Assembly (NCBI RefSeq): GCF_022846255.1
Contig: NZ_AP025682.1
Strand: one strand, 5' to 3'
Source of the DNA: Escherichia coli
Lineage (GTDB): Bacteria; Pseudomonadota; Gammaproteobacteria; Enterobacterales; Enterobacteriaceae
Length of the DNA: 64,000 nt
Shown here in pieces: positions 18,501-21,500 of the stretch. The position numbers were made by a program. The first letter of the stretch is position 1, and each line of letters begins with the position of its first letter.

Positions 18501-21500
18501 CGCATCGTGGAAAAAATTCTGACATACTTGTCGAGCAGGCATAGAAGCGATCTCATTGAATTGGTTGCACAAATCAGTAGATCACAAAACTCTATGCCTG
18601 TCTTTTTTACCCGCCCATTACTAGGGATTCCTCAGCGCTAACTGAGGGCGGGATTTCTACTTCTATTATTCAGGCCATGCCAATCCATCACTGAATTTTT
18701 TATGCCAATATTTTCTTGAGTAAAAATCATCCCTGTCCAGATGATATATTAAATCTTGTATCCTTTTGCCTGGCTTATATTCATATTTGTATAACATAGT
18801 AGCAAGTTCAGATTGCATACGAAAGAGGTCATCAAATAGAGGCTGTGCATTATCAAAATTGGTGCTTCCGATCTGATGAACTAACGATTCAATACACTCC
18901 TCATACAACCGAAGGTTACGTTTTATTGATAAAACAACATCTCGATACATCTCAAGATCTCGTTGAAATTCAGGCCAAATATCCATTTACCTCCTCTTTT
19001 TATTTAACCTTGACTGGTTGAATATGACCAACTTGTCCCGTTTTCGGGTTATAGATCATTTCAAGACCTGCACCTTCATATCTTAAGTAGCCAGGTGCGC
19101 CTCTAGGATCCGGCTCAACTTTTGGATTGCTATTCAAAACTTCTCTTGCTTGCACGAATGGCGCAGGTCTGCCTTGCTCTCATAATTTCTCATAATAACT
19201 TTTGCTGAATTTCATTCCATCTACAGTATAAAAATCACCATCAAAGGATATCTTTTTCCCAATACCAAGGTAGCTTAATTTATTTGATGCAGCTTGCCCT
19301 ATAAGAGGCGTTGCCGAAGCCGCAATGATCTCCAAGCCCTGCTTTGTTTCGGTGTAGCTTTCTGCGGTCTGACGATCCCCCCCTTTGGTGACCATGAAAT
19401 AGTTAATCATGGCGTTTTTCACCTGCTGCTGATTCTGTGCATCAACACTGGTGATATCGAGGAGATTGACTATCTGACCATACGCATCAGCGTATTGCTG
19501 GCTGTATTTCGAGTTATAAGGGCCATCTTCGTACCCTTCTTTCGACGCAATAACTTTCAGTCTTGCGCTGGCACACGCTGAACTAACCGCCGTTATTACC
19601 GGAGATATACTGCTCCTTAAAGCCACGCACTGAACTCTCACCCCCGAGGCTCAGTTGTTCCACACCATGAAGACGGTCCGGTGACCACTGGGCATAAGCG
19701 CTGGTCAGCCACCACACACTGTCCGTGACGGGGCGCTGAAAACTGGCGCTTAATGACCATTTCCGGAGCTGATTTACGGGCAGGTCTCCCCTTTTCCCGT
19801 GGTCGCTTTCTGCGCCGAACCAGGGCATCCCCCGTGTGAATACCGGATTCAGTGTTCCGCCCCCCCCCCCAGAAACTTGTGTGTGTGATTCAGCCCGACA
19901 GAAAATGAAGTGAGTTTACGGCTGCTGCCCTGAAGCAGAACATCATCCAGATAATTGTGAATAATGCGGTGCTGCAGACCTCCGGTCAGTGCTGTCTTCA
20001 TGTCCCCGTTACGGAACAGGACATGCGACAGTCCCAGCCGGTGAGTCTGCATGTCTCCCGTGGAACGCCACAGCCAGCCCCGGTTATCTATGGTGCTGAG
20101 GTAGTCACTCCATGAATACGTGTAATCCACCAGGGTATAGCCATACGGCAGACTGACACCGGCGGCAAAATTCCTCGCATCATGTGACACCGAAAAGTCA
20201 CTGCTCCGTCCCCCGCTGACAAACCAGTTGTCAGCCAGCCCCAGCGGATTATTAAAAGAAAGGACACCATTTAACTGCCCCGTACCGGTATTCTTCTGTC
20301 CGCTGTTGTCGATGCCCACGCTCCCTGTGACAGGCCATTACGGCGATGCCGTCAGTGTCACCACCGACCATCCCTCACGGTCACCGGGCGATATTTCAAT
20401 CTGTACCGGCTCCGTACGCAGACGGTTAATCTGCTCCATCCCCTGCTCAATATCCCGCAGGTTCAGAACATTCCCCTCCATTCCCGGGAAAACCATCTTC
20501 AGGGTGCGGGCAGGAAGGTCAGCGCCTTCCGCCCGGATTTGCTGCAGCCTGCCTTCCATGACCGTTATGTGCAGTACGCCCCCTGAAAGGTCCTGCTCTG
20601 TCAGAAAGGCCCGGCTGGTGATATATCCCCGGCGTATATAGCCGTCCGTCACGGCATCCGTGACTGCGGTCAGCCCCGTGATATTCAGACACTGATTCAC
20701 CCACGGTGCCACCAGTCTGTCGGTTTCTGCAGACGTCAGTCGGGTGGCCCCACTGACAACAATGCGTGACACCGTAAAGCAGGGACCTTCAGTACCGGCA
20801 GACGTTTCCGGAGACGGAGTGATGGTCAGCGGCGCACTACGCTCCAGCGCATCACGCTGGCGCTGGTTTTCATCCAGCAACTGCTGCTGTTGCTGCTGAA
20901 TTGCACTGCGGTCACCCGGAGACAGCATGGCTGCCGGAGACGAAAATGCGGGGATAAAAAAAACAGAAAAACGGAGAGGGAGAGATAGCATATCCACGGA
21001 GATATTCGCCGGAGCATATCACAACTGAGGTGTACTGGCAATAGCGGACACTACCACTTGTTCTTTTTTTAAGCAGCCATCTGATGATATTTTTCCCTGA
21101 AGGCTGCCGGGGAGATATTCCCCAGACGAGAGTGACGACGCTGACGATTGTAGAAAATCTCAATGTATTCCCGTATTACTGAGATGGCTTCATCCCGGTT
21201 ATTAAAACGATAGTGGCTCAGGCTCTCATTTTTCAGCGTTCCCCAGAAGCTTTCCATCGGAGCGTTGTCGTAACAGTTACCTTTACGCGACATTGATGTT
21301 TTCAGACCAAACTGCTCCTGTATGACCCGGTAATCGTATGCGCAGTACTGTGAACCTCGATCAGAGTGGTGGATTAGCCCGGCAGGTGGGCGCTGGCTCC
21401 TGAGCGCCATAAACAGGGCTTTACCTGTCAGCTCTTTTGTCATGCGCTCTCCCATGGCGTAGCCGACAATTTCGCACGTATAAACATCTTTGATGCCAGC

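Follow-up and report, generated by a model that had tools for sequence, protein, structure and literature searches.

The cdiB, cdiA and cdiI sequences at the locus

The region considered here lies in a 64,000-nucleotide stretch of the Escherichia coli contig NZ_AP025682.1 (assembly GCF_022846255.1), referred to below at its full length as the window, and it contains, all on the minus strand, sequences homologous to the cdiB, cdiA and cdiI genes of a contact-dependent growth inhibition (CDI; type Vb two-partner secretion) operon, in that order and collinear with the intact cdiBAI operon of E. coli NC101. A mechanical list of minus-strand open reading frames (ORFs) gives 20338-20997 (219 aa), 19849-20319 (156 aa), 19583-19828 (81 aa), 19180-19641 (153 aa), 19000-19155 (51 aa) and 18666-18986 (106 aa). 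An NCBIfam scan of the fragment ORFs returned weak BamA/POTRA matches for the 20338-20997 ORF and none for the others, and the genes were therefore identified by comparing their DNA with intact loci and by way of PDB sequences. The original prediction, made from the sequence alone, had seen here a decayed two-partner-secretion (TPS) or CDI locus, and direct comparison with the NC101 operon and with PDB entry 5I4Q supports that view; its features (the homopolymer tract, the ORFs, the toxin-like fragment and the small downstream ORF) have held up, while its account of the frames, the gene start and the extent of the loss has not.

When positions 18600-21060 were searched by megablast against 5,426 complete RefSeq E. 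coli genomes, 1,210 genomes matched. The upstream 59% of the query aligned, among the 30 best records listed, with genes annotated as [quoted passage not shown] at 97.7-98.0% identity, and in the loci that were fetched these genes adjoin cdiA. The downstream 1 kb aligned at 99.3% with the 3' end of cdiA, annotated as "contact-dependent inhibition effector tRNA nuclease", and with a small gene following it, in 72 genomes including NC101. None of the 5,426 genomes carries the whole stretch, or the decayed allele that it represents. The order in NC101 is cdiB, cdiA (3289 codons), cdiI, an IS4 transposase fragment, ythA, nanY and nanX, and because window positions 14523-19585, from nanX to the 3' end of cdiA, share this order at 99.2% identity, the two strains have the sequences at the same chromosomal locus. 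The boundary of the locus in the window is marked by the IS4-family transposase fragment at 18012-18572 on the minus strand (NCBIfam transpos_IS4_2, E = 1.4e-33, a partial match), which is 99% identical to NC101 throughout; since RefSeq annotation places the same fragment 3' of cdiI in both NC101 and strain M19, it predates the decay.

The cdiB gene begins with an ATG at 23583, preceded by its promoter and leader region (23584-23722), and homology to NC101 stops at 23722; window positions 23510-23722 align with the upstream and 5' region of NC101 cdiB at 92%. By the same alignment, positions 23513-23583 hold codons 1 to about 23, the signal-peptide region, and this piece joins the rest of cdiB in frame once the intervening insertion sequence (IS) is excised in silico. 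The main cdiB (TpsB) remnant lies at 19585-21025 and comprises codons ~23-503 of 590, with the POTRA region and most of the ShlB β-barrel; its DNA is 97.3% identical to cdiB of NC101 and 98.0% identical to that of strain 48. The ShlB/FhaC/CdiB-type transporter pieces that had been recognized from the sequence are thus borne out, both by this 97-98% DNA identity to intact E. coli cdiB and by Pfam matches to POTRA_2, POTRA_3 and ShlB on identical gene calls in the sibling contigs described below.

Five lesions affect cdiB, namely an IS insertion, a slip in a T run, a nonsense codon, a poly-G tract of altered length and a 3' deletion. The IS3-family, IS600-like element occupies 21026-23512 (2487 bp, minus strand) within codon ~23, as defined by its junctions relative to NC101 and by NCBIfam transpos_IS3 matches on the ORFs at 23080-23448, 21555-21887 and 21069-21548; it is bracketed by the two copies of a GTTG target duplication, at 23513-23516 and 21022-21025, and its ends read TGAGGTAGCC... 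and ...ACACCTCA. Nested within it on the minus strand is an IS30 element (21965-23185, 1221 bp) with terminal inverted repeats and a 2-bp GT duplication, whose ORF at 21972-23123 matches NCBIfam transpos_IS30 at 276 bits against a cut-off of 80, and net of this element the IS600-like copy measures 1264 bp. The name IS600 is a provisional one. We considered whether the IS had deleted the 5' end of cdiB and rejected this, because a whole-window BLAST placed that end beyond the IS at 23510-23722; since the 5' end lies on the other side, the event is a simple insertion with target duplication. The orfB of the IS600-like element is split at 21548-21555 into ORFs of 110 and 159 aa and is separated from orfA by IS30, and for these reasons the copy is probably immobile.

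The second lesion is a run of five T residues at 20968-20972 on the minus strand where intact cdiB has six, seen as a gap in the alignment to NC101, and it causes a -1 frameshift at about codon 41; the CdiB frame is recovered only when T6 is restored. The third is a TAA nonsense codon at 20338-20340 on the minus strand, which replaces codon 252 (GAA in NC101, GGA in strain 48), and the fourth is the G11 tract at 19860-19870 (read as C on the plus strand), a +2 frameshift relative to the G9 of NC101. These positions revise the earlier account of a transporter gene beginning at 20997 and split into three frames. The true ATG at 23583 is parted from that point by the 2487-bp IS, the -1 frameshift falls inside the first ORF, and the GTG at 20997 is an artefactual start located past the IS. 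Moreover, the ORFs at 20338-20997 and 19849-20319 share a frame (20997 - 20319 = 678 = 3 x 226) and are parted by the TAA codon, and the only frame shift between the listed ORFs is at the G tract, where a break had been placed correctly. Taking out the IS and one target-duplication copy in silico, and putting back T6 and G9, yields a product that is collinear with residues 1-502 of CdiB at 96-97% identity and contains one stop; there is no further hidden lesion, and the list is complete.

The fifth lesion extends into cdiA. At 19583-19586 on the minus strand (break 19584/19585), codon 503 of cdiB is joined to codon 3095 of cdiA, and the missing 9561 bp comprise cdiB codons 504-590 (~88 codons) together with cdiA codons 1-3094. 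The endpoints share a perfect 2-nt microhomology (TA) within an imperfect repeat, GGTAAT..GCGG.TA, and the loss is a single illegitimate deletion. CdiB thus has no complete 16-strand ShlB-type barrel to accompany its signal peptide and POTRA regions, codons 504-590 being gone, and CdiA has lost the TPS domain, the FHA repeats, the receptor-binding region and the VENN motif (at 3035), which delimits its C-terminal region (CdiA-CT), with codons 1-3094 of 3289 deleted. No other homology to cdiA was found in the 64-kb window by whole-window BLAST. The statement that cdiA is missing except for a 3' fragment with an in-frame TGA is right as far as it goes (the fragment is at 19000-19584 and the TGA at 19180-19182), and is to be completed by the loss of the ~88 codons at the 3' end of cdiB. 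An in-frame fusion of CdiB to CdiA-CT was considered as a product of the junction and rejected, because a TAG arises at the junction in the reading frame of cdiB, from which that of cdiA differs by 1; the 153-aa ORF that spans it (19180-19641) is, in its N-terminal part, an out-of-frame read of cdiB.

The cdiA remnant (19000-19584, minus strand) is 99% identical in DNA to the 3' end of NC101 cdiA and encodes residues 61-255 of the NC101 CdiA-CT, counted with Val3035 as residue 1 (PMC5737660), that is, part of the entry region and the EF-Tu-dependent tRNase. PDB entries 5I4Q and 5I4R describe the EF-Tu/CdiA-CT/CdiI complex of E. coli NC101 (Michalska et al. 2017, PMC5737660), in which CdiA-CT is an EF-Tu-dependent tRNase that cuts the acceptor stem and has a proposed active site of Arg200, Glu236, His248 and Gln250 (PMC5737660). 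The last 92 codons of the remnant correspond to all 92 residues of 5I4Q_A (E = 7.7e-58), with a stop and one I to V change as the only differences, and the preceding 113 residues match the CdiA chain 6VEK_A. The stop is a TGG to TGA change at 19180-19182, in the codon for Trp196, ahead of each of the four active-site residues, and in the same numbering the deletion takes CdiA-CT residues 1-60, including VENN. No single ORF holds the toxin domain and its catalytic residues, and with CdiA-CT residues 1-60 lost and a stop placed before all four of the latter, the toxin is dead twice over and is also without its delivery machinery.

The last gene, cdiI, is intact (18666-18986, minus strand, 106 aa). 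Its product is identical over 106 of 106 residues to CdiI-NC101, the "Contact-dependent inhibitor I" of 5I4Q_B/5I4R (E = 9.6e-72), and by this identity it is the cognate CdiI; the sole DNA difference from NC101 is synonymous, and Pfam CdiI-like PF28101 is matched on an identical gene call. The small ORF suspected of being an immunity gene from its position is therefore just that, and comparison of the toxin-like fragment with known toxins leads to the same pair, 5I4Q_A and 5I4Q_B. We suggest that the 106-aa ORF be named cdiI (NC101 type), and that the three cdiB ORFs, the 153-aa junction ORF and the 51-aa ORF be annotated as pseudogene fragments.

The decayed allele is present in at least six independent public assemblies, which are 99.9-100% identical and differ only in tract length and one single-nucleotide polymorphism (SNP). 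They were found by an exact-protein look-up with the 153-aa junction ORF, which led to six places, from which seven contigs were read: a pair of NCBI draft genomes, three Logan assemblies built from SRA runs, and a metagenome assembly from ENA. Over 2.5-12.5 kb these siblings match the window at 99.92-100% identity, and each of them, across the stretch that it covers, shares the lesions of the window (IS600::IS30, T5, TAA, the deletion junction and TGA). Since the allele turns up unchanged in several public assemblies, it can serve as a clonal marker, recognizable by its unique deletion junction and its IS600::IS30 insertion.

The poly-G tract in cdiB

The 11-nt C/G run had been reported at 19860-19870, and its position proves exact; it is the sole G/C homopolymer of 8 or more in the window. 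Intact alleles have 9 nt at this point (G9 in NC101, GGGGGGTGT in strain 48), and the five sibling assemblies that cover the tract, two NCBI drafts and three Logan assemblies, all have G10 where the window has G11. Neither G10 nor G11 keeps the frame of the functional G9, and no tract length observed in the allele restores it. The tract is the only indel between the window and its siblings in up to 12.5 kb of sequence that is otherwise 99.98-100% identical, and on this comparison its length appears to have changed, or to have been mis-called, within a clone.

The original prediction had offered two explanations for the break, phase variation and a sequencing artefact, and they have fared differently, since a phase switch is excluded by the four other lesions that kill cdiB, and an artefact is possible in view of the five assemblies with G10. 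That G11 is a homopolymer-length assembly error and the true state G10 is a plausible explanation, to be held tentatively and at somewhat under even odds, and it is compatible with the interpretation of the locus given below. It agrees with the G10 reading in all five independent assemblies covering the tract, with the absence of any other indel across the near-identical sequence, and with the assemblies of strain Nissle 1917, one in three of which is off by 1 nt in the same 84-nt segment. However, the window has no other homopolymer discrepancy over 12.5 kb and so is not generally error-prone, a true +1 slip is equally to be expected of ten G residues that are free of selection, and short-read assemblies may mis-call such tracts too. 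Perhaps, then, the tract is slippage-prone and has been drifting (G10, G11) in an unselected gene, or else it is hard to assemble.

Alleles that are off frame at this tract occur in the complete genomes of other, unrelated E. coli strains. Full-length cdiB genes annotated as "frameshifted" have G9T (+1) in the O22:H8 strain 154 and in strain 104, and G10T (+2) in strain E166, and the cdiA of strain 154 is annotated as intact in RefSeq. In a survey of the tract, an evenly spread sample of 60 was taken from 740 matching E. coli records and the span length of the match to an 84-nt query was read off: 56 of the 60 records are in frame, one is +1 and two are -1, so that 3 of 59 full-length matches are off-length. 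One of the two -1 records is a Nissle 1917 assembly, and the sample's remaining pair of Nissle assemblies keep the frame; because assemblies of one strain disagree, assembly error is a realistic source of tract variants. On these counts the cdiB tract looks like a modest indel hot spot and not a classical contingency locus. A literature search found no precedent for poly-G phase variation of cdiB, and we consider it unlikely that the tract in E. coli cdiB at large is a true hot spot of slippage by which CDI export is turned off at random, and possibly on again, in nature. Were it so, G10 and G11 here and the +1 and +2 alleles of strains 154, 104 and E166 would be footprints of switching and not sequencing noise. 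Recurrent off-frame alleles at this tract, whether they stem from true slippage or from repeated assembly error, inflate the number of cdiB pseudogene calls, which calls for caution where such calls are made automatically from assemblies.

State of the locus and competing explanations

Whether cdiI is expressed bears directly on what the locus may still do. Between the IS and cdiI no terminator is predicted on the coding strand, all five terminator-like matches in 18500-23900 being on the plus strand. Promoter-like matches do not exceed the shuffle expectation, with 5 found and 5.7 expected. Two weak sigma-70-like matches fall in the cdiB upstream region (23584-23722), in a scanned region whose count is no higher than that expectation, and a hybrid -35/-10 match runs across the IS end and cdiB (21041-21013). 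The only SNP among the siblings, at 21012 (C in the window and two siblings, T in three siblings and NC101), is in the -10-like hexamer of this hybrid site, which reads TATGCT or TATGTT accordingly. The Shine-Dalgarno sequence of cdiI is GAGGAGG in the window and GAGGAAG in NC101 and M19, a lineage-specific A to G change at 18991. When substitutions are polarized with a second copy of the module, in strain M19, four changes in the 585-nt toxin remnant are derived in the window lineage relative to NC101 and M19 (V3164G, V3186A, W3230stop and I3251V), all of them non-synonymous or nonsense, and none is derived in cdiI. Only seven substitutions in 1.7 kb are derived, the change at 18991 among them, and that this change strengthens the Shine-Dalgarno sequence is an observation made post hoc.

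The interpretation that we favor is that this is a wrecked cdiBAI operon of E. coli class I, with a toxin of the NC101 type, in which cdiI alone is intact, and we would put its probability at about 0.85. As judged from sequence comparison, functional CdiB, CdiA and active toxin are all gone and cdiI is preserved. Such a cell would no longer be able to export or deliver the toxin, and if cdiI is transcribed, possibly by read-through from the IS or from the IS/cdiB hybrid promoter, it would stay immune to neighbors that deploy the NC101-type EF-Tu-dependent tRNase; immunity to NC101-type CdiA-CT from neighbors would then be the only activity left to the locus. To lose the weapon and keep the shield would be the order of decay that selection for CDI immunity predicts, and retained immunity after loss of the weapon fits with the strong selection for CDI immunity that has been shown experimentally (PMC4927057) and with the expression of an orphan cdiI gene in EC93 (PMC3150448). 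Several considerations weigh on the other side. Two IS elements have put an extra 2.5 kb between cdiI and the native promoter of the operon, and expression of cdiI is putative; promoter-like matches are no commoner than in shuffled sequence (5 versus 5.7); four derived changes in the toxin remnant against none in cdiI are too few to prove purifying selection on cdiI; and the view is of 64 kb of the genome, so that a further cdi locus may exist elsewhere.

Some of these considerations also feed an alternative for the locus as a whole, namely that all of it, cdiI included, is transcriptionally silent junk that has not yet been deleted or mutated. Displacement of the operon promoter by 2.5 kb of IS DNA and the lack of enrichment of promoter-like sites would be as expected for a silent locus, and at ~0.4% divergence zero derived changes in the 321-nt cdiI are expected by chance. 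That the coding strand has no terminator-like site from the IS to cdiI argues against silence, as do the lineage-specific strengthening of the cdiI Shine-Dalgarno sequence (with its post hoc character in mind), the expression of orphan cdiI genes in EC93 and the strength of experimental selection for immunity; we regard silence as possible, and lean against it.

Two further explanations can be dealt with briefly. That the G tract works in this strain as a phase-variation switch, turning CdiB export and CDI on and off, would be in keeping with a long tract inside an ORF that differs in length between near-identical genomes (G11, G10 and the G9 of intact relatives, with assembly error a possible source) and with the frameshifts at the same tract in the full-length cdiB of unrelated E. 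coli (154, 104 and E166), one of which has an intact cdiA, but it is already refuted at this locus and is highly improbable, because cdiB is dead at any tract length: even with G9 the IS, the -1 frameshift, the codon 252 stop and the 3' truncation persist, cdiA is gone, the lengths observed (G10, G11) are not the in-frame G9, and the share of sampled records in frame is unlike that of a classical contingency locus. That the cdiA-CT/cdiI pair is a classical "orphan" module, a spare cassette that can recombine onto a full-length cdiA, is barely credible, although such modules are common in E. coli (PMC3150448) and M19-type mouse strains carry an NC101-type module as the last, frameshifted orphan of an array beside the same IS4 fragment: the VENN region and the first 60 CdiA-CT residues are deleted, so that the fragment starts 60 codons past VENN and the homology for cassette exchange is gone, the nuclease domain contains a nonsense codon, the window has no full-length cdiA for the fragment to lie downstream of, and because cdiB directly abuts the fragment, the latter arose by deletion within a complete NC101-like operon.

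The wrecked operon with a surviving cdiI is thus a case of ordinary genome decay and not a new system, and the object, a pseudogene copy of a CDI system already characterized in structure and biochemistry, is known in kind and in detail, so that its importance beyond annotation is small. It does make a tidy natural case of CDI decay, with export and toxin lost and immunity kept, in the order that the "surveillance" model predicts (PMC4927057).

Island context and comparison with known systems

The cdi remnant lies in a genomic island associated with tRNA-Phe, in an E. coli that resembles phylogroup B2. The tRNA-Phe gene is at 3386-3461 and is followed by a gene with a P4-type integrase domain at 3596-4924, and these two likely form the left boundary of an island of ~43 kb that ends shortly ahead of cadC (47200) and encloses the cdi remnant. 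From 47200 on, cadC-cadB-cadA-lysS-dtpC belong to the core DNA of E. coli, with 99.8% identity to B2-type strains. The many IS elements, and the absence of the decayed allele from all 5,426 complete E. coli genomes, had suggested a Shigella origin, which we rejected because cadCBA has its full length and this 99.8% identity to B2 E. coli. The stretch upstream of cdiB has its best E. coli match, in strain FEX669, at 96.4% identity.

Several other genes of the island deserve mention. Divergent from cdiB is a dGTP triphosphohydrolase gene (23965-25218, plus strand), which NC101 does not have at this position; it scores 368 bits with the PADLOC anti-phage dGTPase model and 321 bits with TIGR01353 (cut-off 152), and is below the NCBIfam "antiphage_dGTPase" cut-off (286 versus 400). 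A 632-aa protein encoded at 32883-34781 on the minus strand has an N-terminal AAA ATPase with matches of the OLD/GajA/AriA type (PADLOC AriA at 76 bits, and many GajA models) and is annotated as "ATP-dependent nuclease" in E. coli relatives; the neighboring ORFs have no family matches, and the region may be a defense islet. A Saf-like chaperone-usher fimbrial cluster, also in the island, is found at 6289-10247 on the minus strand, with a SafD-like pilin, an 862-aa usher and a SafB-like chaperone, and since the usher and chaperone are below their equivalog cut-offs it is a divergent member. An intact transposase gene of the IS630 family lies at 13341-14372 on the minus strand; synteny with NC101 stops beside it at 14523, and past that point NC101 carries more orphan VENN/cdiI modules, none of which the window has.

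The closest comparator is the NC101 cdiBAI operon itself, with which the window shares the neighborhood of cdiI, the IS4 fragment, nanY and nanX, as well as 97% DNA identity in cdiB, 99% in the 3' end of cdiA and cdiI, and an identical CdiI protein. It differs from NC101 in that its cdiB has an IS, two frameshifts and one nonsense codon, in that 9.56 kb (the 3' end of cdiB and codons 1-3094 of cdiA) are deleted and the toxin domain ends at Trp196, and, in the island upstream of cdiB, in having the dGTPase gene where NC101 has a hypothetical gene.

At the tract, strains 154, 104 and E166 resemble the window in having an extra 1-2 nt in the same poly-G run of cdiB, whereas in them the tract is apparently the sole cdiB lesion, and cdiA is annotated as intact in 154. 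The likeness to poly-G contingency tracts such as those of Neisseria hmbR/hpuAB (PMC3786947) consists in a G run of at least 9 within an ORF, lengths that differ in close relatives and recurrent off-frame alleles elsewhere; unlike those loci, the gene here is dead regardless of length, and ~95% of the sampled E. coli cdiB genes are in frame. The orphan modules described by Poole et al. (2011, PMC3150448) likewise combine a 5'-truncated cdiA without translation signals, an intact immunity gene after it and adjoining transposase remnants, all of which are found here. In contrast to those modules, the window has no VENN-encoding sequence, the fragment is not located 3' of a functional cdiBAI, and it was made by an internal deletion and not by cassette displacement.

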